DNA of 63,322 bases, filler included, from Anaerolineae bacterium (GCA_029262755.1; 6 parts of 6 records of this genome joined end to end with filler, not necessarily neighbours in it); one strand, 5' to 3'; positions 3,201-32,762 are shown, counted from the first letter of the whole stretch. The notes: generated by a model not told the origin, from the letters alone. Program-made: numbers and translations.

Positions 3201-3314
3201 GAGCCCTCGTTCTTCAGCCGAAACCGCCCGTGGCATAGTTTCGTCGAGACGAGATGCCGAGTCGGAATGCCGATCCGGAGCTTCTTGTTGCACCTAGAAC
3301 GCGAGGCGAACGCC

Positions 3315-6300
3315 ATGGCATCCATCTCCATCCTCCCACCCAGGCTGGTTCGCGCCGCGGCCGTGGCCGTTCTCGTCGTCGCATCGGTGCTCCAATCCGC
3401 CGCCGCGCCGGCCGCAGCACAGACGGGTCCTGGTCCGCTCGACGTCTCCGAGCCCCCCACCGGCGAGCTCTGGGTGCAGAACCTCGCGCCCAACCCTGGC
3501 TTGCAGAACCTCGCGCTCGGCCTCTTCGACGACGCCGGCCGGACGTCGTTCCCCCCCATCGGCCTCCTGCCCAGCCCGCGCAGCAACGACCTGCTTTGGA
3601 CGGGCCAGCTGCGCGCCTCGCTCGCCGACGGCTCCTACGGTGTCCACATGCGCTCCTCCGCGCAGCCGGAGTTCCCGAGCGTCGCCGTGGTGCGCAACGA
3701 ATGGCCGGCTAGCGGCGCCGCTGCCCTCTACGCGGCGCAGCCCGGCGCCCAGGAAGTGCTCGTGCCCCTGGTTGCGCGTCAGGTCGGCCCCTCCGGCCTG
3801 AGCTCGCGTGTGCACATCCAGAACCTGCACGTGAGCCAGCGCAAGGATGTGCAGATCACGGTCTACGCCATGGCGACGGGCGCGGAGGCCGTGACCTTTG
3901 TGCGCACGATGCCGTGGGGCGCTTCAATCACGCTCGACTTCGCAACGGACCCCAGCCTCGTCCACCTGCCAGAGAACTTCATTGGCACCCTGACCGCCCG
4001 TGCCGAGACCGGACAGCGCATCACGGCCGTGTCCACCGGGCCGCTGCGCAACCGCGCGCGCGGCGTCTTTGCGATCCCCGCCCTCGCCCCCGACGCCTTC
4101 GACACGACGCTATACCACCCCCGCTACGTCACGCGGCGCGCCGAGCAGCGGCGCAACGGCACCACGGTGACGACCTCTACATGGCTATCGGTCGCCAACC
4201 CGAACCCCAATCCCATCGATGTGAACGTCACACTCTTCGGCTCCGACGAGCCGGGCAACACCTGCGCCGGCCAGACCTTCTTGCACTCCGCGTCGCCGGC
4301 CACCATCCCAGGACACGGCCTGACCTCGTTCCTGAACGGGCTACCGGACAACTGCGCGGCGAGCGTCCTGATCGAAGCGAGCGCACCCGTTGCCGCCACG
4401 GCGATCGAGTCGGCCACGGACGGTTCGCTCACCGCCGCGACGATGGCCGTCGGCGCCTCCATCGCCCAACGGGACGCGCACCTGCCGCTCGTGCGCCATG
4501 ACTACGACGACCTGAGCACGAGCGTCCACGTTGTGAACGCCTCCTCCGAGGCAGCCGTGGCCACGCTCACCCTGACCTACGTCGCCGACAGCACGACCAA
4601 GTCGTCGACGCGTACGGTTCCGCTCGCGGGCGGCGCGTCGGCCCGCTGGGATATGTGGGAACCCGACGCCATGCCGCCGGGCTCGGTCGGCACGGTGCGC
4701 GTGCGCTCGAACAAGACGGACGCGCCGATGACGGCCATCGCCCGCGAGAGCTCGGACCGCGGCCTCAAGGACGATGCCGCCTACAACAGCCTCACGGTGC
4801 CCGTCGGCGTGGACATGCCCCCCGCGCCAGACCCCTTCTTCCCCTCCCAACACGCGCCGCTGCTGCATTACTCGGGCGTCTACGACCTCGGCCTGATCGC
4901 AACCGGCACCACGGAGGCGGAGCGCCAGCGCATCCACACCACGCTCAACGACCAGGCCTGGCAATACGCCAAGCGCACGGGCGTCACGGTGGCGGTGGCC
5001 GTCGTGCCCTACGTGATCGACGGGCTGCCCTACCAGGACTGGCTCGCCGCCCAGATGGACACCGGCTTCCCCGATTTACCCATCCGCGCCCGCACCTGGG
5101 TCGCCGGCCTGGAGTACAACGGCGTCACGCGCTTCGGCCGCGCGGGCAAGCTCCTGCCGGTCGACGCCGGCACCTTCCCGACCCGCGGTGACTTCCTCGA
5201 AGACGCCTGGGAGGCCAACCTGGTCCTCGGCAACGACCGCCCGGCCGCCGTCCCATGGCTACGCATCGGCTGCGCGCCGAGCTACCGCAGCCTCGCCGTC
5301 GTCACCGGCGCCAAGGACGTCGTCCAGGGCAACGAGCTTATGGCCTGGCTGACCGCCCCCGACCAACAGCGCCAGAACTACGCGCCGACGATCCCCGGCC
5401 GCACCCGCATCGGCCTGCCCACCCGCGCCCCCCTCTACGCCGACCTCGCCATCGATTGCGGCGACGCCCCCGAAGTCCTGCGCACAGCGCCCGACTCCGT
5501 CGCCGAGGTCGTCGACGAGGCCGACGCCGCCGCCGACTCCGTGGCCGCCGCCCTCGCCGCGCTACAAGTCGACGCCCTAGGCGACGCCGCCAACCCGGCC
5601 AAGGCCGTCGGCGTCCCGGCGGGCGCCCAGTTCGTCCTCGCCCAACCGATGCTCGACACCCTCACCGACGCAGAGATCCGCACCCGCCTGCGCTCCGACG
5701 CCGGCCTGGTCGTCGGCGTCCTCACAGTCCGCGAATCCCCCCCACCCACGAGCACCCCCGTCCCAACGGCGACCTCGACAACCGTCCCGACCGCAACGTC
5801 CACCGTAACGCCGACCGCCACCGCGGAGCCAGTGACCCCAACGCCCACCGACGATCCGCTCCCGCCGTCCGCCACGCCGACCGCGACCGCCACGGACGAC
5901 GCCCCCTCGCCCACCCCGGACGGCGAACCGCCGACCGCTACGCCGACACCGGACGATGGCGCGACCGTGACGCCGACGCCAGAGGACGTCCCACCCACGG
6001 CGACCCCCACCGACGAAGGCGCGACACCGACGCCGGACGGCACCCCGACTGGCCCGATCTATCTGCCCTACGTATTGCGCAACTACGATCCGTCGATCGG
6101 CAGCGTCGTAGCAAGCGGCGAGAGACGTGAGGGCACGGTCGCGAGGCACGTGCGTATCGCGGGTGGGGTCGATACCGCGGGGCACGCCGCGGATGCACGT
6201 CCGGTCGACGGCGCGCGTTCGGTCGCGAGCGAGCGTTCGGTTGACGGCGCGCGTCCGACTGCAGGCGAGCGTTCGACTGCAGGCGAGCGTTCGGTCGACG

Positions 6301-6812
6301 TCGCGAGGCCGGTCGATTCCGCGCGTCAGACTGCAAGCGAGCGTCCGGCCGACACCGCGCGGCCGGTCGACAGTGGGCGTCCGGTCGCCAGCGCGCGTTC
6401 GGTCGACAGCGCACGTTCGGTCGACAGCGCGCGTCCGGTCGACACCGCGCGTTCGGTCGACAGTGGGCGGCCGGTTGTCTCGACGTTCGCCGCGTCACCC
6501 GCGCTCAAGCGATTGCGCGCCGCCGTCCGTCCTGCCGCGAGCAACGCTCTCGCCGCCACAGCGCAGGTCACTTCCACGACGGTCATCGTGGTCTGGAAGG
6601 AGACCTCGCCGGGCGTCATCTCCACCACGCTCGTCGCCGACGACGGCATATCGCCGATCGCTCCCGCCACGCTGCGCATGGCCGTACCGGTTCCGGTTGA
6701 GTCTGGATTCCCGGGCGGAGGCGCGGAGCCGGAGGTGTGGATTGAGACCGGGTCGACGATCTATTGTTTCGCACAAGGCTCGAACCGGGGATGTCTTAGA
6801 TTCGAGGATTGA
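3315..6812 (+). CDS. Large secreted multidomain protein with Pro/Thr linker, internal IYLPYVLR motif and hexapeptide repeats
   Basis: Signal peptide (AAAVAVLVVASVLQSAAAPAAAQ), repeated beta-rich modules (VHIQN/LSVAN/VHVVN), long PT/AT linker, GC-rich third positions; start could be 3267 or 3315. Confidence 0.8.
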   Translation: MASISILPPRLVRAAAVAVLVVASVLQSAAAPAAAQTGPGPLDVSEPPTGELWVQNLAPNPGLQNLALGLFDDAGRTSFPPIGLLPSPRSNDLLWTGQLRASLADGSYGVHMRSSAQPEFPSVAVVRNEWPASGAAALYAAQPGAQEVLVPLVARQVGPSGLSSRVHIQNLHVSQRKDVQITVYAMATGAEAVTFVRTMPWGASITLDFATDPSLVHLPENFIGTLTARAETGQRITAVSTGPLRNRARGVFAIPALAPDAFDTTLYHPRYVTRRAEQRRNGTTVTTSTWLSVANPNPNPIDVNVTLFGSDEPGNTCAGQTFLHSASPATIPGHGLTSFLNGLPDNCAASVLIEASAPVAATAIESATDGSLTAATMAVGASIAQRDAHLPLVRHDYDDLSTSVHVVNASSEAAVATLTLTYVADSTTKSSTRTVPLAGGASARWDMWEPDAMPPGSVGTVRVRSNKTDAPMTAIARESSDRGLKDDAAYNSLTVPVGVDMPPAPDPFFPSQHAPLLHYSGVYDLGLIATGTTEAERQRIHTTLNDQAWQYAKRTGVTVAVAVVPYVIDGLPYQDWLAAQMDTGFPDLPIRARTWVAGLEYNGVTRFGRAGKLLPVDAGTFPTRGDFLEDAWEANLVLGNDRPAAVPWLRIGCAPSYRSLAVVTGAKDVVQGNELMAWLTAPDQQRQNYAPTIPGRTRIGLPTRAPLYADLAIDCGDAPEVLRTAPDSVAEVVDEADAAADSVAAALAALQVDALGDAANPAKAVGVPAGAQFVLAQPMLDTLTDAEIRTRLRSDAGLVVGVLTVRESPPPTSTPVPTATSTTVPTATSTVTPTATAEPVTPTPTDDPLPPSATPTATATDDAPSPTPDGEPPTATPTPDDGATVTPTPEDVPPTATPTDEGATPTPDGTPTGPIYLPYVLRNYDPSIGSVVASGERREGTVARHVRIAGGVDTAGHAADARPVDGARSVASERSVDGARPTAGERSTAGERSVDVARPVDSARQTASERPADTARPVDSGRPVASARSVDSARSVDSARPVDTARSVDSGRPVVSTFAASPALKRLRAAVRPAASNALAATAQVTSTTVIVVWKETSPGVISTTLVADDGISPIAPATLRMAVPVPVESGFPGGGAEPEVWIETGSTIYCFAQGSNRGCLRFED
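6194..6480 (+). repeat. Degenerate 18-bp coding tandem repeat, about 16 copies
   Basis: Units like GCGCGTTCGGTCGACAGC encoding (A/E/G)R(S/P)V(D/A)(S/G/T). Confidence 0.85.
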
Positions 6813-19122: not shown

Positions 19123-19782
19123 CTACGCTCCGCGAACGACCAACCCCAGCGCGAGCGCCCACATGACGACGGCGATCGTCGCATCGAGAACGCGCCACGC
19201 GCCCGGCCGCGCGAAGACCGGCGCCAATCGCTTCGCGCCGAAGGCCAGGCCGAAGAACCACAGCACCGAGCCCGCCATCGCGCCCGCCGCGAATAGCCAT
19301 CGATCAGGCAGTGGCAACCGCCCGCCGACGCCGCCAAGCAGCACCACGGTGTCGAGATACACGTGCGGGTTGAGCAGGCTGAAGCCCAGCGCCATCAGGA
19401 CGGCGTCGCGTAGTCCGGTCGCCGATGCGTTCCCCTCGGCAGGACCACCCGCGCCGCCCACCCCCGCGTCCAACGCCTCGTTCCCACGAACGGCCGACCA
19501 CATCGCGCGGGCACCGTACACGACAAGGAACAACGCTCCGCCTAACGTCACCCAGCGCAGCGCCTCGGGACGCTCGCCGAGAAGCGCGCCCATGCCCGCC
19601 ACGCCGAGGGCAATGAGGCTGACGTCGCTGAGCGTGCTCACCGCCGCGGTAACAAAGACCCGGTCGTGGCGCAGCCCCATGCGCAGCACGTGCGCGTTCT
19701 GCGCGCCGATCGCGACGATGAGCCCGAGGCCGAGGCCGAAGCCTTCGAGGAGGGGGCGGAGGGTTAAGGGTAGGGGCGACAC
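19123..19782 (-). CDS. LysE/ArgO family amino acid exporter
   Basis: GLIVAIGAQNAHVLRMG, LLNPHVYLDTVVLLG, WRVLDATIA. Confidence 0.93.
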   Translation of the reverse strand: MSPLPLTLRPLLEGFGLGLGLIVAIGAQNAHVLRMGLRHDRVFVTAAVSTLSDVSLIALGVAGMGALLGERPEALRWVTLGGALFLVVYGARAMWSAVRGNEALDAGVGGAGGPAEGNASATGLRDAVLMALGFSLLNPHVYLDTVVLLGGVGGRLPLPDRWLFAAGAMAGSVLWFFGLAFGAKRLAPVFARPGAWRVLDATIAVVMWALALGLVVRGA

Positions 19783-20005
19783 GCAGCGCTGCTCCCGCGA
19801 GTTTCTTGGACGCCAAAGAGAGACGCCGATGATGCCACGAGCGGCGCCGAGGCGTCTGCGACCGCGTTGGCGACCGAGTTGACGACCGCGCTACTCGACC
19901 GTCTGTGACACGCCCCAAGCCCACCCACTTTCGGCACCCCACCTCCATAGCGTATCCTGGCGTCTCATGTTTCCACGCCCGTGATTCCCGTTGGAGGCGG
20001 AGCCC

Positions 20006-20629
20006 ATGGCCAAACAACTCGTGTTCCGCCTGGACGACGAAGAGATCGCCCTGGACATGGAGAAGGTCGATCGCAGCAAGCTCTACGGCTACAAGGATCG
20101 GCTCGTGCTCGACGAGGACGGCGAGCCTTGCGAGCTCGTCACGCTCGCGGGCGATGGGCGCACGATGGTCGGCAAGGGCGGCATCGCGATGGCCTATGTC
20201 TCGGCCGACCGTGAGTGGTGCAACAAAGCTGACCTGACGCCGATCGACCTCGACGGCGAGGTAATGCGGCCCGTGCCCTCCACCTTCAACGCGCCCGTCG
20301 TGCTCGATCAGACGGCGGGCATCCAGGACTATCTCGACCACGACATCCGCTCGGTCTACCTGCTCACCAGCGAGGACGAGCTCGGTGCTCTACGCGCGCG
20401 TCTCGAAGCCGGCGCGATCTTCCGCTTCGACTTCTCGTATCGCGGGGGCTTGGAGGCCGACGCGGCCTTCCTGCTGACGGGCAGCGACGGCAACGTATTC
20501 ATGGCCATCGGGCGGCCGGCGACCACGACGTACGTCGGTCTCCAGGAGAGCGCGGGGATGGCCGCCCAAGCGGATTCGGAAGACGATGAAGATGAAGACG
20601 AGGATGACTTCGGCTTCGGTGTGATTTAG
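20006..20629 (+). CDS. Hypothetical protein, putative divergent Ku-like protein A with acidic tail
   Basis: RBS GGAGG/GGAG, coding-like codon usage; the pattern SVYLL..GALRARLEAGAIFRFDFSYRGG..AFLL resembles the Ku core C-terminal half (by eye only). Confidence 0.6.
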   Translation: MAKQLVFRLDDEEIALDMEKVDRSKLYGYKDRLVLDEDGEPCELVTLAGDGRTMVGKGGIAMAYVSADREWCNKADLTPIDLDGEVMRPVPSTFNAPVVLDQTAGIQDYLDHDIRSVYLLTSEDELGALRARLEAGAIFRFDFSYRGGLEADAAFLLTGSDGNVFMAIGRPATTTYVGLQESAGMAAQADSEDDEDEDEDDFGFGVI

Positions 20630-20650
20630 AACGCGGGGAGAACGGCGACG

Positions 20651-21406
20651 ATGGGCGAGCTCAACATCAGCAACAGCGCCGGACGCGACGCGGTGGTCAG
20701 CACGGACGCCGACGCGCCGCCGCCGCGCGTGCGGTGGCTGGACGACCTGGGCCGGCAGGCCTTCCCGACGCGCATCCTCAAGTCCGAGATCGGCCACGAC
20801 TACCCCGCGCTGCTCGAAAAGCACGGCGATCCCGAGGCCGTGGCGCAGGCGCTCGTCACGGGCGACCCCGAGCTCGACATCGAGACCTTCGGCTCCTTCC
20901 TGACCGAGACGTCGCGGGTGTACATCGACCAGCACGGCGAGATGGCCCACCGGGTGAAGCACGTGGAGATCATCCGCAACCCGGACGGCACCGAGCGTGA
21001 GCGCCGGCCGCGCGCCCGCGTACGTCAGAACATCGCGGCGCCGGACCCGCTGCTCTGGAGCGGACGCATGATCGACAAGGCCGAGGCCTGCCGTCGTTTC
21101 GTCTTCTCCGCCCGGCTGCAGCTGACCCACGTCAACGGCCTGACCTATGACTTCCTCTACGCGATGGCCAAGGAGCTGGAGGAGAAGGACGCGCTCATGC
21201 TCGTGGGCGCCGGCCCGAAGTCGAACCAGCCGCTCATCGTGCGCAACGGCGGCATCCCCCATCGCGGCTTCCTGGAAGGGCGCACGGACGGCGACCGCTA
21301 CCTGCTCGTGCTGCACCTGTCGATGCAAGAGCTCAAGGCGCCCGAGCCCGGCGACGAGGATGAAAACGGGGACGAGGGCGGGGACGGGGACGCCGACAAT
21401 GGGTAG
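20651..21406 (+). CDS. Hypothetical protein, putative divergent Ku-like protein B with acidic tail
   Basis: RBS GGGGAG; FVFSARLQL..GLTYDFLYAMAKELEEKDALMLV..LIVRNGG..FLEGR..YLLVLHL resembles Ku core; overlaps ligase start by 8 bp. Confidence 0.6.
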   Translation: MGELNISNSAGRDAVVSTDADAPPPRVRWLDDLGRQAFPTRILKSEIGHDYPALLEKHGDPEAVAQALVTGDPELDIETFGSFLTETSRVYIDQHGEMAHRVKHVEIIRNPDGTERERRPRARVRQNIAAPDPLLWSGRMIDKAEACRRFVFSARLQLTHVNGLTYDFLYAMAKELEEKDALMLVGAGPKSNQPLIVRNGGIPHRGFLEGRTDGDRYLLVLHLSMQELKAPEPGDEDENGDEGGDGDADNG

Positions 21407-23060
21407 CGCGAACCTCGTCGATCCGGGCCGCATCAAGGTCCGCATGGGCGCCTACGGTACCGCACAGTCCACGGCGCTGGTGGAGACGGTGCTCTTCAGC
21501 CGCGTGCAGGACTACCGGCGCCAGCTGAGCGCCCGGATGATCCCGCTGGACCCGGCCGACATCCGGCGCAAGATCGCGACCAGCGAGTACCACGTCAGCC
21601 GCAAGCTCGACGGCGAGTTCACGGTGCTGCTCTACAACCACGGTGAGGCGGTTTCGGTGAACTCCGGCGGCACGGTGCGCATCGGCCTGCCGTGGATCGA
21701 GGAGGCGGCGAAGCGTCTGGACGAGGCAGGCCTGCTGGAGGCGATGCTCGTCGGCGAGCTGCACATCGAGCGCGACGACGGGATGCGGGCGCGCATCCAT
21801 GACGTGATCTCCGCCGTTCGCACCCCGGGCAGCCAGGACGATCTGGACCGCGCGCACTTTGCGGTCTTCGACCTGATGTCGGTCAACGGCGAGCGTTGGA
21901 CGCAGCCTCTGCGCGAAACGCGCGCACGGATCGAGGAGCTCGTCGGTGGCGGCGAGCGCATCGCGCCGGTCGAGGGCCAGTGGGTGCAGGACGCGCGCGG
22001 CATCGAGGAACTGTACAAGACCTGGGTGAACGGCGAGGAGTGCGAGGGCATCGTCGTACGCGGCGACAGGGGCGGCCTGTACAAGATCAAGCCGCAGCAC
22101 ACGCTGGACGTCGTGGTCGTCGGCTTTAGCGAGGGCCAGGGTGACCGCGAGGGCATGCTGCACGACCTGCTCGTCGGCGTCCTGCGCGAGGACGGTTCGA
22201 CCCACCTGCTGACCCGCGTGGGCGGCGGCTTCACCGACGAGCAGCGCCGCGACTTTCTGCTGCAGCTCAAGGAGCTGGTCGTCGAAAGCGACTACGCGGC
22301 CGTCAACACCGCCCACGTCGCCTACCAGATGGTACGGCCGTCCTGGGTCATCGAGATCACGGGCCTGAGCATCCTGGCCAAGACCACCCGCGGCGGCCCC
22401 ATCAACCGCATGGTCCTGGACTGGGACGCGCCCGCCGACACCTACCGCGTGATCCGCCGCCTCCCGCTGGCCAGCGTGATCTCGCCGCGCTTCGTCCGCC
22501 GGCGCGAGGACAAGCAGGCCCACCCGGACGATGCCTCGATCCGCCAGATCGCCGACGTCGTCGAGGTCCCGCTCTCCGACCAGGAGGCGGGCGGGCTGCG
22601 CCCCCAAAGCAGCACGATCCTGCGCCGCGAGGTCTACACCAAGGAGCTCAAGGGCGCGCTCATGGTGCGCAAGCTCGTGATGTGGAAGACGAACAAGGAA
22701 AGCGAGGAGGAGTTCCCCGGCTACGTGGTCCATTACACGGATTACAGCCCCAACCGCAAGACCCCCCTCAACCGCGACATCCGCGTCTCGAGCTCACGCG
22801 AACAGATCGACGACCTGTGGGACGAACTCCTCGACAAGGCCGTCAAGGGCGGCTGGGTCCGCCACGCGGGCAGTGGTGGTGGCGGGGTCGCGAGCGAGAG
22901 CGAAGGCAAAACGAAGACGGACGGTGCGGCGAAGAAGCCCGCCGCCAAACCGAAGGCGAAGTCCAAGACCAAGTCCGGCGAGAAGCCCAGCGCGACGTCC
23001 GATTCCAAGCCCAAGCCCCCCACAAAGCGCAAGCCCAAAGCACCCAAGGCCGACGGATGA
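21399..23060 (+). CDS. ATP-dependent DNA ligase with extra C-terminal (WGR-like) domain and Lys-rich tail
   Basis: Motif I RKLDGE, III LVGELH, IIIa FAVFDLM, IV EGIVVR, V YKIKP..LDVVVVG, OB fold RVGGGF..VRPSWVIEI, VI PRFVRRREDK. Confidence 0.9.
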   Translation: MGSANLVDPGRIKVRMGAYGTAQSTALVETVLFSRVQDYRRQLSARMIPLDPADIRRKIATSEYHVSRKLDGEFTVLLYNHGEAVSVNSGGTVRIGLPWIEEAAKRLDEAGLLEAMLVGELHIERDDGMRARIHDVISAVRTPGSQDDLDRAHFAVFDLMSVNGERWTQPLRETRARIEELVGGGERIAPVEGQWVQDARGIEELYKTWVNGEECEGIVVRGDRGGLYKIKPQHTLDVVVVGFSEGQGDREGMLHDLLVGVLREDGSTHLLTRVGGGFTDEQRRDFLLQLKELVVESDYAAVNTAHVAYQMVRPSWVIEITGLSILAKTTRGGPINRMVLDWDAPADTYRVIRRLPLASVISPRFVRRREDKQAHPDDASIRQIADVVEVPLSDQEAGGLRPQSSTILRREVYTKELKGALMVRKLVMWKTNKESEEEFPGYVVHYTDYSPNRKTPLNRDIRVSSSREQIDDLWDELLDKAVKGGWVRHAGSGGGGVASESEGKTKTDGAAKKPAAKPKAKSKTKSGEKPSATSDSKPKPPTKRKPKAPKADG

Positions 23061-24151
23061 GCGATCATCTCTCAATCATCGCGGACCAGTGGCGCGAGCG
23101 GGCCGGCGAGCTCGGGCATTGGGCGATGCGCGCCTTGGTCAACCGGACGGATGTCTGGGGGCGCTACCTCAACTTCAAGCAGCGCAAGGTCGACGCGGAC
23201 GGCGTAGTGCACAACGCGATCACGGCGCCCTTCAAGCAGGAGCGCGGCAAGATCTTCTTGCAGGAAAGCTCGCTCGTGAAGCACTTTCAGGCCAAGAAGG
23301 AAGGCGAAGCGCTCGGCCTACACAGCATGAGCGCTCACCGCAGCTCGCGCTGGATGGCGATCGACATCGACCTGCACGACTCGCTGGACGATTCCGTCAC
23401 GCCGGAGGGCAATTTTGCCGCGGCGCTCCACTGGTGGAACGCGCTGCGCGAGATGGGCCTCGACCCCCTGCTCATGGACTCCAACGGCCGCGGCGGCTTC
23501 CACCTGCTTGTCCTCTTCGCCGAGCCCATGACCACCGAGAGCGTCTACTACTTCCTCAAACGCTTCGTGGCCGACTACGAGATGCGCGGCTTGGACCAGA
23601 TGCCCGAGACCTTCCCGAAGCAGCTACGCGCCAAGGCCTACGGCAGCTGGCTGCGGCTTCCCGGCCGCCACCACAGCCGCGCCCATTACACCCGCGTCTG
23701 GAACGACGACCCGGCCGAGGACGAGCCCTGGCTCGAGGGACACGGCGCCATCGACCGCATCCTCGAGATCGGTCAGGCGCAGCCCGAGGTGCTCGTGGCC
23801 ATCGGCCTGGAGCCGGCCATCGAGACGATCTGCCTCGACTTCGACGGCGTGCTCCACTCCTACGTCTCCGGCTGGCAGGGCGAGGCGAACATCCCCGACC
23901 CGCCCATCCACGGCTCCGACAAGGCCGTTGCCCGCCTGCGCAAGCGCTACCGCATCGTCGTCCACTCGGCCCGCTGCTTCAACAAGGAGGGACGCGATGC
24001 CGTCCGCGCCTGGCTCAAGCAGCACGGCATCGAGGTCGACGATGTCTGCGAGCACAAGCCCCCGGCCAAGGTCTACGTCGACGACCGCGGCGTGCGCTTC
24101 GACGGCGATTGGCAAGAGACCATGGTGGCGATCGACGCGTTTCGGCGGTAG
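23057..24151 (+). CDS. Archaeo-eukaryotic primase (AEP/PrimPol) domain fused to HAD-superfamily phosphatase
   Basis: AEP motif I WMAIDID, motif II SNGRGGFHLLV, ETFPKQ..WLRLPG; HAD ICLDFDGVL..VHSAR..KPPAKVYVDDR; ATGA overlap with ligase. Confidence 0.85.
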   Translation: MSDHLSIIADQWRERAGELGHWAMRALVNRTDVWGRYLNFKQRKVDADGVVHNAITAPFKQERGKIFLQESSLVKHFQAKKEGEALGLHSMSAHRSSRWMAIDIDLHDSLDDSVTPEGNFAAALHWWNALREMGLDPLLMDSNGRGGFHLLVLFAEPMTTESVYYFLKRFVADYEMRGLDQMPETFPKQLRAKAYGSWLRLPGRHHSRAHYTRVWNDDPAEDEPWLEGHGAIDRILEIGQAQPEVLVAIGLEPAIETICLDFDGVLHSYVSGWQGEANIPDPPIHGSDKAVARLRKRYRIVVHSARCFNKEGRDAVRAWLKQHGIEVDDVCEHKPPAKVYVDDRGVRFDGDWQETMVAIDAFRR

Positions 24152-24211
24152 CGTAGCCCCGCACGCGGGCTCGCAGACCGCGACGCGAACCATGGTTTTG
24201 GAGTCAGTGTC

Positions 24212-24559
24212 GTGCGCTACCCCGTAACCCCCGACGGCCGCTACTTCGTCGTACGCGGACGCCTCTGGCGCCGAAGCGACCCCTCGATTCCCGAGGACGA
24301 GCGCCGCAAGCTCGTGGGCGAGCTCATGCGCCACCGATCCGCGGTGGGCCACGCGAAACGCGCCGGCGACGCAGCGGCGGAGAAGGAGGCCCGCCGCGGG
24401 GTGCACGCGGCCAAGGTCGCCCTCGGCGAACGCGGCCCCGTTTGGTGGCAAGACGGCGCGCCGGATTTCAACCGCTACCTGGTCAAGAACTCTCCCTACC
24501 AGGCGTGGTTCGACGACCTGGACGTGAAGGGGCCAACGGGTGCAGCACCGGGTCGATAG
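24212..24559 (+). CDS. Small conserved hypothetical protein
   Basis: TPDGRYFVVRGRLWRRSDP..AKVALGERGPVWW recalls a widespread uncharacterised family; GTG start with GGAG. Confidence 0.75.
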   Translation: MRYPVTPDGRYFVVRGRLWRRSDPSIPEDERRKLVGELMRHRSAVGHAKRAGDAAAEKEARRGVHAAKVALGERGPVWWQDGAPDFNRYLVKNSPYQAWFDDLDVKGPTGAAPGR

Positions 24560-24611
24560 CCCCTCCGTTGGGGCTCAGCTTGCCGGCAATCCGGCGCAGG
24601 TCGGACCCACA

Positions 24612-25730
24612 TTATCCATCGGGCGGGCTCTCGCTCGCACCGTACTCAAGGGCGGCCGGCAACGAAAAATGCCGAAACAGCGAGCCGTCGAGGAAGGCGA
24701 CCATCGCGGCGATGCGACCGTCGACGATCTCGATCAGATGGAGCGAGTAGGGCAGGAACGGCCCCGCGGGCTCGGACCGGTGGTAGAGCGCGCACGCAGG
24801 CAGACCGTTGGCGCGCGTGGGCAGCATGCGGAACGTGCCTGCCATGGCCGGCATCAGCACCATCGCGGCCAGGGATGCGCGGATCTGCTGCGCTCCGAGC
24901 AACCACTCTGGCAGCGGCGGCATTGCGAGGGTCGCATCGTCGTGCAGCAAGGCCACGAGCGCGTCCACATCGGCCGTTTCCCACGCCGCCATGTAGCGCG
25001 CGAGGAGCGCGGCGGTGACGTCGTCATCGGCCGAGGGCGCGCTGTCAGCCAAGGAGCCTGCTCGGCGCTGAACCGTCTCGCGCGCCCGCTGCAGCGCGCT
25101 GTTGACCGCGGCGACGGACAGCTCGAGCAAGTCTGCGCATTCGGCGGCGCGATAGCCGACTACGTCGCGTAGCAGCAAGATGGCGCGCTGCTTGGGCGGC
25201 AGCAGCTGAAGGGCGACCAGAAACGCGAGCGCCACGCTCTCCCGCTGCGAGTATTGGGCTTCCGGCGTAGCGGCCGCGATCTCGGCGGCCTCGTCCGGCC
25301 AGGGCTCGATCCAGATGGGATCCAAGCGTGGCGGCTCGCGCATCTCGGCCGCGGGCGTCGCCGGTCCGAGATCCATCGGCAGCACGCGCCGCCGCCGCTT
25401 CTCGAGCGCGTCGATCCCCACGTTCGTGGTGATCTTGAACAACCACGTTCGCAGGCTCGAGCGGCCTTCAAAGGAAGGCAGCCCGCGCCACGCCTTGAGC
25501 ATGCTCTCCTGAAGCAAGTCCTCGGCCTCGTGGAGCGAGCCGGAGAGCCGGTAGCAATGTGCGCTCAGCTCCCGCCGATAGGGCTCCATGAGCGATGCGA
25601 AAGCGTGCTCATCGCCCTCACTCGCCGCCTGGAGCGCAGACGTCTCCTCGAAGCGCAACCGGTCTTGGTCGTGCCGAGCTTCCGTCGAGCGCTTCCAGGC
25701 GGGCAAGCGTGGATCGTTAGGCGTCGTCAA
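24612..25730 (-). CDS. ECF sigma factor with C-terminal SnoaL-like domain (SigG-like)
   Basis: HCYRLSGSLHEAEDLLQE, FEGRSSLRTWLFKITTN, LPPKQRAILLLRDV, RYMAAWETADVDALVALL..MPP. Confidence 0.9.
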   Translation of the reverse strand: MTTPNDPRLPAWKRSTEARHDQDRLRFEETSALQAASEGDEHAFASLMEPYRRELSAHCYRLSGSLHEAEDLLQESMLKAWRGLPSFEGRSSLRTWLFKITTNVGIDALEKRRRRVLPMDLGPATPAAEMREPPRLDPIWIEPWPDEAAEIAAATPEAQYSQRESVALAFLVALQLLPPKQRAILLLRDVVGYRAAECADLLELSVAAVNSALQRARETVQRRAGSLADSAPSADDDVTAALLARYMAAWETADVDALVALLHDDATLAMPPLPEWLLGAQQIRASLAAMVLMPAMAGTFRMLPTRANGLPACALYHRSEPAGPFLPYSLHLIEIVDGRIAAMVAFLDGSLFRHFSLPAALEYGASESPPDG

Positions 25731-25749: not shown

Positions 25750-26439
25750 TTACCATTCGGACCACTCCCCTGCCGCGGGCTCCCAGATGCCGGACGTCGG
25801 CGCTGCGGTGAAGGCCTCGCGCATGACGGAATTGTGCTTCGCGTCGCCGTAGTGCTCGTTCATGCCATCGCGGTCATGCCAGACGTCGAGCCCCAGCAGC
25901 TCGAGCGGAGCGTCGCTGCCCGGCGGGTTCATCTTGACGAACATCTGGTGCGAGATCAACCCGCGTCGGCGTGCATCGCGCTGCGCGTTGATATCTGCCG
26001 CGCGGAACTTCGCGATCGCCTCGTCGGGCGACCCGATCTCTCCCCGGACCATCGCAAGATAGCGATCGGGACGGCTGCGCGGCACGGGCAGGTGGTAGGA
26101 ATACGACCCCTCCGCGTTCATCCAGATGTTGGCCTCCCGCGCGCTGAACAGCTTCGTGCCCTGCTGCACCACTTGTTCGTTGGCGAAGAAGTCCATGATG
26201 CCCTGCGGGTCGGCCCACACGTCGAGGAACATGAGCTTGCCTGCCCCGCCCCCCGTGCTCGGGCCGGCCGACATGGGCGCATAGACCATGTGGCTGAGAT
26301 CGCCGAGCGACCGCGCCGCGGCGATCCCCTGCGGCGAACCAGCGGTCTGGTTGTGCAGGACGCGCATCTCTTCCAGCGTGCTGGGCAGCATATCGCCCTG
26401 AACGGTGAGTAGGACGGGCCATTGAATCGATGTGCTCAC
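25750..26439 (-). CDS. Hypothetical protein with internal duplication (dimeric alpha-beta barrel-like)
   Basis: RBS AAGGAG; two similar halves (SH..LMFLDVWADPQG / SH..LLGLDVWHDRDG); 19 bp upstream of the sigma gene. Confidence 0.75.
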   Translation of the reverse strand: MSTSIQWPVLLTVQGDMLPSTLEEMRVLHNQTAGSPQGIAAARSLGDLSHMVYAPMSAGPSTGGGAGKLMFLDVWADPQGIMDFFANEQVVQQGTKLFSAREANIWMNAEGSYSYHLPVPRSRPDRYLAMVRGEIGSPDEAIAKFRAADINAQRDARRRGLISHQMFVKMNPPGSDAPLELLGLDVWHDRDGMNEHYGDAKHNSVMREAFTAAPTSGIWEPAAGEWSEW

Positions 26440-30029: not shown

Positions 30030-30165
30030 TCGTCTTGCCCGCACCGTTGGGGCCGATCAGCCCAAAGACACTTCCTCGCGGAATCTCGAGAGACAGTTTC
30101 TGCACCGCGATTTTGGACCCGAAGCGGCGGGTGAGGCCGCGGGTCTCGATGGCTAGTGCGCTCAC
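30030..30165 (-). CDS. ABC transporter ATP-binding protein, N-terminal fragment
   Basis: [23 protein letters not shown]alker A; truncated by gap. Confidence 0.88.
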
Positions 30166-32486
30166 GACCCACCTCCCCCGTTGCCGCCACGGGACCGCAT
30201 CGTCCGGCCCTGCCCTTCGATCGGTACGCGCCCGAGCAGCAACGTCGGCCGATCGACCGCCGCGCGACGTCGCTCGATACCGATGGTCACGGGTGGATCG
30301 TCGGACCAGCCGGCGAGCACGGCTTCGCTCGGAGCGAATCGAGAGGAGCCCAACAACCTTCTGGAAGTAGAAGGATTCCCGTAGTACCCGTTCTGCGGAT
30401 CGTAGAACGCCGAGGCTAGGCGACGCCGTTCGGGCCTATCGCCGGCGAACGTGTACGAGTTGGGCACCTGACCGATCGCGCCCTCCACGTTGATTCGTCC
30501 CGAACCAGACCACGCCGGCAGCGGCATGGATCGCGGACCATAAAACAGATAGGCACCGTCAACAGGGCGATCGAAGGGCGAGCCGACCGTGCCTTGGACG
30601 TCTGACAAACTTCTCTGTTGCTCGCTGAACCTGAGCCCGTCGCCGGCGACCTCCTCGACAAACGGCCATGGGACGACCGCTTCAAACGCGAAGCCGCCGT
30701 TCGACCATTGCGCGACGCTCAGATCGCGCAATGCGCCGTCGCCGCCGAAGATCAATTGCATCTGGCCGGCCTGGGGGACGCTGCGTCCCTCACTACGCAG
30801 AGGGTGCGCCCATGCGCCGTCCAGGTCGAAGTCGTAGTCCCTGCTCGCGGGCGAGCTGAGGTCGACCCAACCCTGGACGTGGGCGACGCCGCCACCGACG
30901 GGAACGCGAACCACCGAATATTGCGTCTGTTGCAGCGTGCCGCCGTGCAACCACAACCCGAAGGCGTAGCTCAAGCCGGTGAAGGCCAAGGTCAGCGCGG
31001 GTATCGTCACCCACGCTAGATCCAAGCGACGCCGGGATCGTAAGAGCATGTAGTTGATCGGCCCGACCACGACTACGTAGCTGGCGAGGACCAGGAAGAG
31101 CGCCATAGGCGAAGGCAGCCCGGACTGCCGCTCAATTCCGGCTGCCGCGGCCAAACTCTGCGGCATGAAGCGCTCATCAACGAGCGCCTGGTGCACACTA
31201 CCAGGACGCTCCACGTGCAACCGCATCCACATCGTCTCGTCGCCCGCCCATCCTCGAAGCGGCGGCACCCCTGGATCCACGGCCAGGGCCACGACCACAC
31301 CGTCGCCCACGTCCCGCTTGACGATGAGCGGGAGGTCGGCCAGCTCTTCGCCACGCAAGGTTGCCGCCGCGAACTCCTCCGGAGCGCCCCCATCGACCTC
31401 ATTCTCGGCGGCCTCATCCCCGGCGACCTCGTCTTCCAACGCGCCGTCGTCCTCCGCGGCAGCCTGTCCTTCCTCATTCTCGGACTCTTCCCTGGATTGC
31501 TGTTCGCGCAATATCTCGGCTATCGCTCCCTCGCCCGAATCCTGCTCCTCAAACGTCGCCTCGACGGTGGCGCCGTCCACCGGCCTCAACCGGGCGACGG
31601 TCGCGGGACGGGCGAGATCCTCAGTGCCCATCGAACCGCTCGCCACCCAGCGCCCCAAGGATTGGAGCCCGGGGACGATCTCCACGCCCGCCGACTCGGC
31701 CGCCCGCAACTCGGGTGGCAGTCCTGCCGTGGCTTCGGCGCCGCGCGTGCCGCCGAGAACGGTGACCTGTCCACCAAGCCGGACCCACTGGACGAGCGCT
31801 TGCCGCTGCGCCTCGGTCGCGCCCGCAAGGCTGTCTGCGACGATCACGTGCTCGATGGCATCGAAGAGCAGGGGATGGTCGGGTAAGTTCTTCGCCGGTT
31901 CGCGCACGATACGGGCGGGGCTGTTCACGCGACCCGTGGCGATCGCCAGGCCTTCGAGGCCGACGAGACGCGGATCATCGTCGCCGATTACGAGGATCAT
32001 GAAGAGGTCGTCTTCGCCGTCCAACGTGAGCCGGCGCTGTTCTCTCTGCCGTCCCTGGGTTTCGAGATAGATCGCCCCCCCGCCGTAGCGCGAGGGCAGG
32101 AAGGGCAGGATGAGCTCCTTGCGGGCGCCCCGGGGCAACTCGACGGACGTACGATAGTCGACGTTTTGACCGGTGCCTTCTATCACGAGCTCGACGTCCC
32201 GCGCAGGACCGTCGTTGTTCAGGCTCACCGCCACGCCGGTCCACGACTCGTGCTCGTAGTTGCCGCCGAACAAGGGCTTCGCGTTCCAAGAGAGGCCGCT
32301 ATCCGCGATCGGGGCGTCGTTCTGCGGCGCGGGCGCGGACCAGACGGTCGGCGGCGGCGCCGTTACGCCCGCGGCGGCCAGCATCGCCGCAAGCAGCCCG
32401 ACGACCGCGAGGCGGCGGCGCACGGGCCGCGAAGGCGGGAGAAGGGGTCGATGCATGGCAGGCCTCCGAATGGCGGCGGGGTGCAT
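30162..32486 (-). CDS. Secreted/membrane protein coupled to an ABC transporter
   Basis: Signal peptide, [11 protein letters not shown] (GATase-like segment), TM pair [18 protein letters not shown]; overlaps ABC start by 4 bp. Confidence 0.75.
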
Positions 32487-32762
32487 ATTCGTCTCGCGCA
32501 CGGTCTCCAGTGTGCCACCGTGGAACCCGGATCACCATCCTCCGCGCGGAAGCAGGCTCGTCGCGCAGGATGCGCTGCCCCACGGCATAGACGTATGAGC
32601 GAGCGATGAGGGGATGGTTGGCAAGAGACGTTCCACGGCCGACGTTCCACCACATTCGGATCGAACCGAAAGCCTCCCGGTGCGGTTCGGAAACCAGACC
32701 CGGACGGTCTACCCTACTTGCCGCCCGAACCGCCCCCCATGCGACGGCGAAGGACCACCACC

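Follow-up and report, generated by a model that had tools for sequence, protein, structure and literature searches.

A putative DNA break-joining gene set encoding two predicted Ku-fold proteins, an ATP-dependent DNA ligase and a primase-polymerase-phosphatase fusion

A stretch of 63,322 nucleotides (filler included), made of six parts of the six records of the Anaerolineae bacterium genome GCA_029262755.1 joined end to end and hereafter referred to as the window, harbors four same-strand genes (positions 20006-24151) that might represent a non-homologous end joining (NHEJ)-like DNA break-joining module built from unrecognised parts, a reading to which we assign a probability of about 0.6. The first two genes encode proteins with predicted Ku folds, the third an ATP-dependent DNA ligase and the fourth a fusion between an AEP primase-polymerase and a HAD phosphatase; because of this combination, the gene set most likely serves to rejoin broken DNA and has escaped annotation. 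The original prediction had proposed that this operon supplies the activities of LigD with different parts, and this fits the data, the ligase and the AEP-HAD fusion being real and the Ku folds being predicted for both remaining proteins.

The four frames are open on the + strand. Gene 1 (20006..20629, 207 amino acids) encodes an acidic protein with a Ku/SPOC-type beta-barrel in its predicted fold, an acidic linker and a C-terminal peptide; gene 2 (20651..21406, 251 amino acids) encodes a protein of predicted Ku fold whose core is net basic and whose tail is acidic; gene 3 (21399..23060, 553 amino acids) is the ATP-dependent DNA ligase, recognised by profile matches and motifs; and gene 4 (23057..24151, 364 amino acids) is the AEP-HAD fusion. 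The tight coupling that had been described for the four genes agrees with both the coordinates and the open frames: genes 1 and 2 are separated by a 21-bp gap, genes 2 and 3 overlap by 8 bp, and genes 3 and 4 share a 4-bp ATGA overlap, by which the start of gene 4 is translationally coupled to the stop of the ligase. The frame of gene 3 is open from 21147, and its start is probably the one at 21399, since the homologues align from residues 1-7 of that start. A GGAGG ribosome-binding site (19991..20005, + strand) can be read 9 nt ahead of the ATG of gene 1; in consensus scans of the region 19500-24800, neither sigma-70-like promoters nor intrinsic terminators exceeded the chance level. The G+C content at the third codon position (GC3) is 0.82-0.94 across the four frames, and the window is GC-rich (61-72%).

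The structure of the gene 2 product was predicted with AlphaFold2 (AF2) using an alignment of 63 sequences (28-80% identity), giving a model with a predicted local distance difference test (pLDDT) value of 92.5 and a predicted template modelling (pTM) score of 0.76. The Foldseek comparison of this model with the PDB gave 50 matches at E<=1e-3, with a Ku chain in every row listed, including M. tuberculosis Ku, another bacterial Ku homodimer, human Ku80 and human Ku70; the E-value for Ku was 1.3e-5 and the template modelling scores against the M. tuberculosis Ku chain 9i91_B were 0.48/0.52. The analysis with VIA-align, an aligner independent of Foldseek with which 48,161 chains were compared, placed M. 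tuberculosis Ku at the top (Z 12.2, root-mean-square deviation 3.7 Å, 164 aligned residues), followed by Ku80 (Z 11.9) and B. subtilis Ku (Z 11.6, 162 aligned residues). SPOC domains scored Z 10.5-11.2 over 105-111 aligned residues and INTS13/14 scored Z 10.2, and beyond this Ku-barrel group Z drops to 4.7 or less. In the viral structure library BFVD, only phage Ku proteins scored.

The AF2 model of the gene 1 product has a pLDDT of 75.3, residues 28-34, 42-65 and the tail being of low confidence. In this case, 22 Foldseek matches to the PDB were obtained at E<=1e-3, the listed rows being all Ku and the best one B. subtilis Ku (9vnq_A, 6e-6), and VIA-align gave B. subtilis and M. tuberculosis Ku as top matches (Z 11.1, 100-102 aligned residues), with Ku80 at Z 9.5 and SPOC domains at Z 8.2-9.4. 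The matches of the two programs therefore point to a Ku-type barrel in both predicted folds. In these models, the match of gene 2 reaches past the Ku barrel, which is not clearly the case for that of gene 1. The proposal of two Ku-like genes in the place of Ku was a positional guess; as far as predicted folds go, it is confirmed for both proteins, but the role of gene 1 as a DNA-binding subunit is uncertain, because this protein is acidic throughout and matches Ku over the barrel only. An ESM Atlas model of one homologue (P0170) was discarded, its pLDDT of 0.33 making its structure matches meaningless.

At the sequence level, neither gene 1 nor gene 2 could be assigned to a family of Pfam, NCBIfam, PHROGs or PADLOC; single scans of 63 gene 2 homologues and 49 gene 1 homologues retrieved no Pfam family, and profile searches of the PDB with the two genes returned nothing, with no Ku at E<=10. 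A reference Ku profile was made of 14 sequences from 14 Planctomycetota genomes; run against the PDB as a control, it picks up bacterial Ku (8e-78) and human Ku80 (4e-4). Since the profile reaches Ku80 but neither of the two genes, genes 1 and 2, if they are relatives of Ku, would be more distant from bacterial Ku than human Ku80 is. The comparison between gene 1 and gene 2 with hhalign gave a probability of 0.02%, and of 8.6% over 200 collinear columns with a wider alignment; sequence comparison does not demonstrate a common origin of the two genes. Gene 2 is net basic at residues 1-50 (53/63 sequences) and 136-232 (55/63). The gene 1 product ends with a peptide of consensus D-[LM]-M-D-F-[DG]-M-I (DDFGFGVI in this protein), which hardly varies among ~115 of the 120 homologues and is preceded by the acidic linker; judged from its sequence pattern, this peptide suits a docking motif. 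Two gene 2 relatives (P0405 and P0365) have their acidic tail replaced, one by a histone-H1-like HC2 tail and the other by a SAM domain.

Gene 3 is, on profile and motif evidence, a complete ATP-dependent DNA ligase. The adenylation domain PF01068 (residues 59-230) is matched with 29.4 bits against a Pfam cut-off of 26.2 and the OB domain PF04679 (residues 251-372) with 34.4 bits against 27.5; PHROG 114 (ATP-dependent DNA ligase) is matched at 1.7e-24, and the PDB matches are archaeal and human DNA ligases, down to 1.2e-11. The ligase motifs I, III, IIIa, IV, V and VI had been reported for this gene: motifs I (KxDG), III, IV, V and VI are conserved in all the variants listed for 25 aligned homologues, but motif IIIa varies. 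Among NCBIfam models, the top match is TIGR02779 (LigD ligase domain), with a score of 62.3 bits, far under the cut-off of 227.75; the LigD model TIGR02776 gave 47.4 bits (cut-off 373.2), and every LigD model cut-off was missed. The RNA_ligase model is touched at E 3.9e-5, under its cut-off. Past the OB domain, the ligase family shares an extra C-terminal domain (residues ~385-486), which is followed in about half of the 62 homologues surveyed by an optional Ala/Pro/Lys-rich tail ending in a basic cluster (~495-553 in this protein). In four of these homologues, one of them on a partial contig, the basic tail is replaced by a classic AAA ATPase, and histone-H1-like basic tails are present on some ligases as well as on one gene 2 relative. 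A WGR-like nature of the ligase tail gained no support from the sequence tests: eight isolated tails matched nothing in Pfam at E<=10, WGR (PF05406) included, a PF05406 search of five genomes (G001-G005) did not match the triad ligases, and hhalign of 25 tails against six local WGR sequences (nine extracted, three dropped for stop codons) gave a probability of 4% over 35 columns, aligned on the last helix. In the cultured phages searched with the ligase, the only matches were ligases at 26-29% identity.

Gene 4 joins an AEP primase-polymerase to a HAD phosphatase, as had been read from its motifs. Both Pfam cut-offs are passed, AEP-TOTE (PF22548) at residues 61-217 with 28.2 bits against 27 and HAD_SAK_2 (PF18143) at residues 258-344 with 30.7 bits against 27.5, and the catalytic residues are invariant in 14 homologues: DID (D103, D105), SNGxGGFH (to H149) and DFDGV (D261, D263). 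D103 and D105 make up the catalytic DxD of the AEP domain and H149 is its motif II histidine. S304, K334, D342 and D343, in the HAD part, are also invariant among the homologues; we assign D261 and D263 to the HAD motif I, DxDx(T/V), and these four residues to the later motifs (Ser, Lys and DD). Weak matches were obtained with a CRISPR-associated PrimPol model and with a polynucleotide-kinase PHROG, and the polymerase domain matches 7nqf/7nqd in the PDB at E 1e-3, the former being presumably the CRISPR-associated Prim-Pol (CAPP). PF21686 is touched by gene 4 only, with 15.5 bits, under its cut-off of 27.4. The Pfam scan of the four proteins gave no LigD phosphoesterase (PE) domain, as the original prediction had stated.

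The relatives of the window genes are all from Planctomycetota, mostly Pirellulales, and the genomes surveyed are related to one another, so that the genome counts reported below are not independent events. The conserved unit is the triad formed by gene 1, gene 2 and the ligase: in metagenome loci of at least 9 kb, the order gene 1-2-3 is kept in 24 out of 27, and it holds in every genome checked and in divergent copies sharing 26-44% identity. Gene 2 is represented by 569 clusters at 50% identity and by 566 metagenome stretches. It was found in 7/201 genomes of the phylum sample and in 6/201 of the order sample, and the idea of a set core to Planctomycetia, which came from copies about 60% identical, was dropped in view of these two figures. 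In the five genomes picked via gene 4, gene 2 is present once in all five, with gene 1 adjacent to it; the ligase lies directly downstream in four of them and 2 kb downstream of genes 1-2 in the remaining one (G004). LigA is present in 5/5 carriers checked, and the triad ligase is therefore accessory. A different situation was observed at two loci, where gene 2 relatives occur apart from the triad. In L199 (34-1830, +), gene 2 forms the C-terminal part of a 598-amino-acid frame whose first ~350 residues belong to no Pfam family, and this 9.8-kb piece shows neither a detectable gene 1 nor a ligase; in L168 (8001-8708, +), no gene 1 or ligase was detectable within 8 kb of the gene 2 relative, directly upstream of which lies a 394-amino-acid frame without Pfam family.

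The association of gene 4 with the triad is looser. A survey based on gene 4 found a relative in 157 species genomes, and only 10 of the 80 loci kept had at least two triad genes within reach; conversely, a gene 4 relative lies within 8 kb in only 3 of the 27 metagenome loci. Where it is linked, gene 4 is convergent to the ligase in seven loci; it lies 2-2.5 kb downstream in two genomes, where it is on the same strand, 138 bp downstream in one locus and upstream in two loci, and the 4-bp coupling of genes 3 and 4 seen in the window occurs in none of the linked loci examined. In the closest relatives (~80% identical), genes 1, 2 and 4 are found on contigs of equal length (7,736 and 11,384 bases), which suggests that these relatives share the linkage of gene 4. 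In the order sample, a full-length gene 4 was found in four genomes, all among the six gene 2 carriers, fragments in one of the carriers and none in the other; in the phylum sample, gene 4 was present in one of the five gene 2 carriers taken. Since the triad is also present in 9/9 genomes with a full-length gene 4 and gene 4 in only 4/10 genomes found via gene 2, gene 4 can be considered an optional partner nested within the triad carriers. The four-gene operon of the original prediction thus stands for the window, where the genes are coupled, and its triad is conserved, but it is not a fixed arrangement, gene 4 being optional and usually unlinked or convergent.

Partial matches to gene 4 were found in 21 further genomes of the order sample, most of them to the HAD part alone and two over part of the AEP domain, and one order-sample genome without gene 2 carries an AEP-only paralogue. 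The matches to the HAD half only (about 19 of the 201 genomes, E 1e-9 to 1e-12) are mostly stand-alone frames of ~135-230 amino acids, with one of 488 amino acids, and occur mostly in genomes without the triad.

Other triads with flanking DNA were identified in 41 loci; the nearest frames, scanned in about 36 of them, are mostly unrelated housekeeping genes. The informative neighbours that recur are enzymes acting on DNA ends. An ExoIII-type Exo_endo_phos gene (L201, L206) or a small metallophosphoesterase of the Metallophos_2 type (L161) is located directly 3' of the ligase on the same strand; in L177, a PolX that includes a PHP domain is convergent; an AddB-like nuclease is present at L146, an AddA/AddB-like nuclease-helicase pair at L183 and Rad52/22 near the triad of L135. 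Proteins of ~680 amino acids with BRCT and pentapeptide repeats directly follow the ligase on the same strand in L175 (10410-12464) and L176 (7718-11848), and a MerR-HTH-TPR gene together with a familyless protein of 194-199 amino acids is located between the ligase and gene 4 in L020 (5165-6953), L093 (10381-12133) and L145 (11041-12772). The variety of DNA-end enzymes beside other triads favours DNA-break repair. The neighbourhoods thus show a constant core, made up of a ligase and two proteins of predicted Ku fold, around which the end-processing enzymes are exchanged, as expected of an end-joining or break-repair system. In a parallel way, the polymerase (POL) and PE domains of LigD come and go in nonconventional NHEJ (PMC7719229).

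On these bases, the following mechanism can be proposed. Genes 1 and 2 would encode two extremely divergent Ku-fold proteins, pairing to hold a DNA end as Ku70/Ku80 do, with gene 2, by virtue of its basic core, as the main DNA-contacting subunit. The C-terminal peptide of gene 1 might dock a partner, possibly the extra C-terminal domain of the ligase, which in turn would seal the break, its basic tail adding non-specific DNA affinity. Gene 4 would prepare the ends, the HAD domain removing 3'-phosphates and the AEP domain filling gaps or adding nucleotides, so that together the two would take the place of LigD's PE and POL domains. We infer the heterodimer, the ring, the binding of DNA ends, the docking of the gene 1 tail, the choice of DNA over RNA as substrate and end joining itself. 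It is also possible, at somewhat less than even odds, that these genes belong to a second bacterial Ku lineage, invisible to sequence searches and composed of a two-subunit pair with its own ligase and exchangeable end-processing enzymes.

Several observations weigh against end joining and bear on other explanations. Sequence methods link neither gene to Ku (hhalign against the 14-sequence Ku profile gave 0.18% for gene 2 and 0.29% for gene 1), and the Ku barrel is also found in SPOC and INTS13/14 domains, which bind proteins instead of DNA and reach Z values of 10.2-11.2 with gene 2 and of 8.2-9.4 with gene 1. Among the alignments of gene 1, those to Ku are no longer than those to SPOC, its candidate arm region (28-65) is modelled at low confidence, and the protein is net acidic in all segments beyond residue 27 (48-49/49 homologues); the hairpin of gene 2 (100-135) is net basic in only 20/63 sequences. 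Moreover, gene 4 is not detectable in 5/10 genomes found via gene 2, and canonical Ku is present in 1/15 triad carriers vs 28/201 genomes of the phylum sample, with no clear depletion and no significant difference. A single-strand break or gap repair system similar to LigC plus Prim-PolC, in which the Ku/SPOC-fold proteins would be scaffolds for the ligase and the end-cleaning enzymes instead of a DNA-end ring, would agree with the acidity of gene 1 and its match to Ku only over the SPOC-shared barrel, with the SPOC and INTS13/14 scores that come close behind Ku, and with the ExoIII-like, metallophosphoesterase and PolX neighbours typical of base-excision and gap repair; Prim-PolC is described as repairing gapped excision intermediates (PMC8211822). 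This explanation appears unlikely, however, in that bacterial Ku gives the longest (162-164 vs 105-118 aligned residues for SPOC) and highest matches of gene 2, and the AddAB-like and Rad52-like neighbours point to double-strand breaks.

The genomic context of some triads raises the question of mobility. Two divergent triads (G082, G143) adjoin a large serine recombinase and DUF2924 and have an AAA ATPase fused to the C-terminus of the ligase (the AAA-fused ligases, of ~1,041 amino acids, are those of L088, 3398-6526, -, and L089, 9061-12186, +, and also of L087 and L096); G082 carries three triad copies on separate contigs, ~87% identical in DNA, and an integrase (L172) and a DDE transposase (L203) flank two other triads. 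A mobile-element or conflict module, circularising or protecting the incoming linear DNA of an element or acting on invader nucleic acid, would also account for the patchy distribution of gene 2 and for the match of the gene 4 AEP domain to a conflict-system family (AEP-TOTE) and to the CRISPR-associated PrimPol model, which adds to the points against end joining, as the best Pfam families of gene 4 were defined in conflict-system and RNA-repair proteins. Nevertheless, we consider it improbable: the flanks of the window are ordinary chromosomal genes, genes 1-3 have no PADLOC match, the search of viral contigs with the gene 2 alignment gave 77 pattern matches and no relative, no match was found in the plasmids searched with gene 2, and canonical NHEJ is equally patchy (PMC7719229). 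For the same reasons, i.e., the lack of PADLOC matches for genes 1-3 and of viral or plasmid relatives of gene 2 in these searches, no evidence was found that the operon counters nuclease damage, as had been suggested, or acts in defence. The RNA-repair origin of HAD_SAK_2, together with the sub-threshold contact of the ligase with the RNA_ligase model and the CCA-adding or poly(A) polymerase gene located upstream of the triads L165 and L185, might evoke a system in which the HAD domain heals 3'-phosphate RNA ends, the AEP domain adds nucleotides and the ligase seals RNA. This is very improbable, since gene 3 shares its OB domain and motif VI with DNA ligases and passes both DNA-ligase cut-offs, the predicted Ku folds and the histone-H1-like tails suggest duplex DNA, and most of the informative neighbours are DNA enzymes.

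The putative break-joining module can be compared with known systems. Bacterial NHEJ (Ku, PF02735, plus LigD with its LIG, POL and PE domains, as in M. tuberculosis and in B. subtilis YkoV/YkoU) resembles it in having a Ku-fold candidate beside a ligase, an AEP polymerase and a 3'-end-cleaning enzyme, in its patchy distribution and in its basic, low-complexity DNA-binding tails. Unlike the Ku homodimer of that system, two different Ku-fold genes are present here, neither of them recognisable by sequence. The triad ligase differs from LigD in lying under all LigD cut-offs and in its extra C-terminal domain, and gene 4 in having a polymerase of another AEP family (PF21686 being below the cut-off), in the HAD phosphatase that replaces PE, and in being an optional and usually unlinked gene. 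With the eukaryotic Ku70/Ku80, the gene set shares two distinct Ku-fold subunits encoded together, Ku80 and Ku70 chains being among the top structural matches; however, genes 1 and 2 have no vWA domain, Ku C-terminal arm or SAP domain, and it is gene adjacency alone that suggests a heterodimer, the hhalign probability between the two being at most 8.6%. SPOC and the Integrator subunits INTS13/INTS14 have the beta-barrel in common with both proteins, but they are eukaryotic transcription or RNA-processing modules without a ligase partner and their alignments to gene 2 are shorter. CAPP and the AEP of the TOTE system are the closest sequence relatives of the gene 4 polymerase domain; unlike them, gene 4 is fused to HAD and co-occurs with a ligase triad. 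It was found without CRISPR or TOTE context, no search aimed at TOTE components having been made, and no description of the composition of the TOTE conflict system was found in the literature searched. The mycobacterial LigC/Prim-PolC pair has neither Ku-fold partners nor a HAD fusion. It has in common with the gene set a stand-alone ATP-dependent ligase accompanied by a separate AEP polymerase, which act there in gap repair (PMC8211822).

As for the rest of the window, the four genes are flanked by ordinary chromosomal genes, encoding a LysE exporter, a short-chain dehydrogenase, TfoX, an ECF sigma factor and an ABC-F ATPase. A 115-amino-acid frame without Pfam family (24212-24559, +, GC3 0.84) lies 60 bp past gene 4 and is not recurrent beside gene 4 in the other loci seen. 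It is followed by a gene in which an ECF sigma factor and a SnoaL-like domain are fused (24612-25730, -) and, just upstream of this gene and on the same strand, by a 229-amino-acid frame without Pfam family (25750-26439, -). Two long frames with coding-like GC3 and without Pfam family, of 1,181 and 779 amino acids, are located at 3267-6812 (+) and 30162-32501 (-), respectively.

No description of this Ku-like ligase system was found in the literature searched, nor in passages of two surveys of Ku/NHEJ distribution, and, as far as searched, the system is new to print. Surveys of bacterial end joining call a genome positive only when a Ku domain can be recognised in it (PMC7719229), and they would record this system as absent or as ligase only. 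For annotation, a testable name could be given to two large families now labelled as hypothetical proteins, and, if the reading is true, a compact three- or four-gene joining kit becomes testable; pending biochemical proof, the system is of high interest to DNA-repair specialists. If the Ku-fold pair does bind DNA ends, the distribution of bacterial end joining would need redrawing, being wider than Ku-based surveys say, and the Ku70/Ku80 pair would gain a prokaryotic parallel, so that heteromeric Ku would not be a eukaryotic invention.

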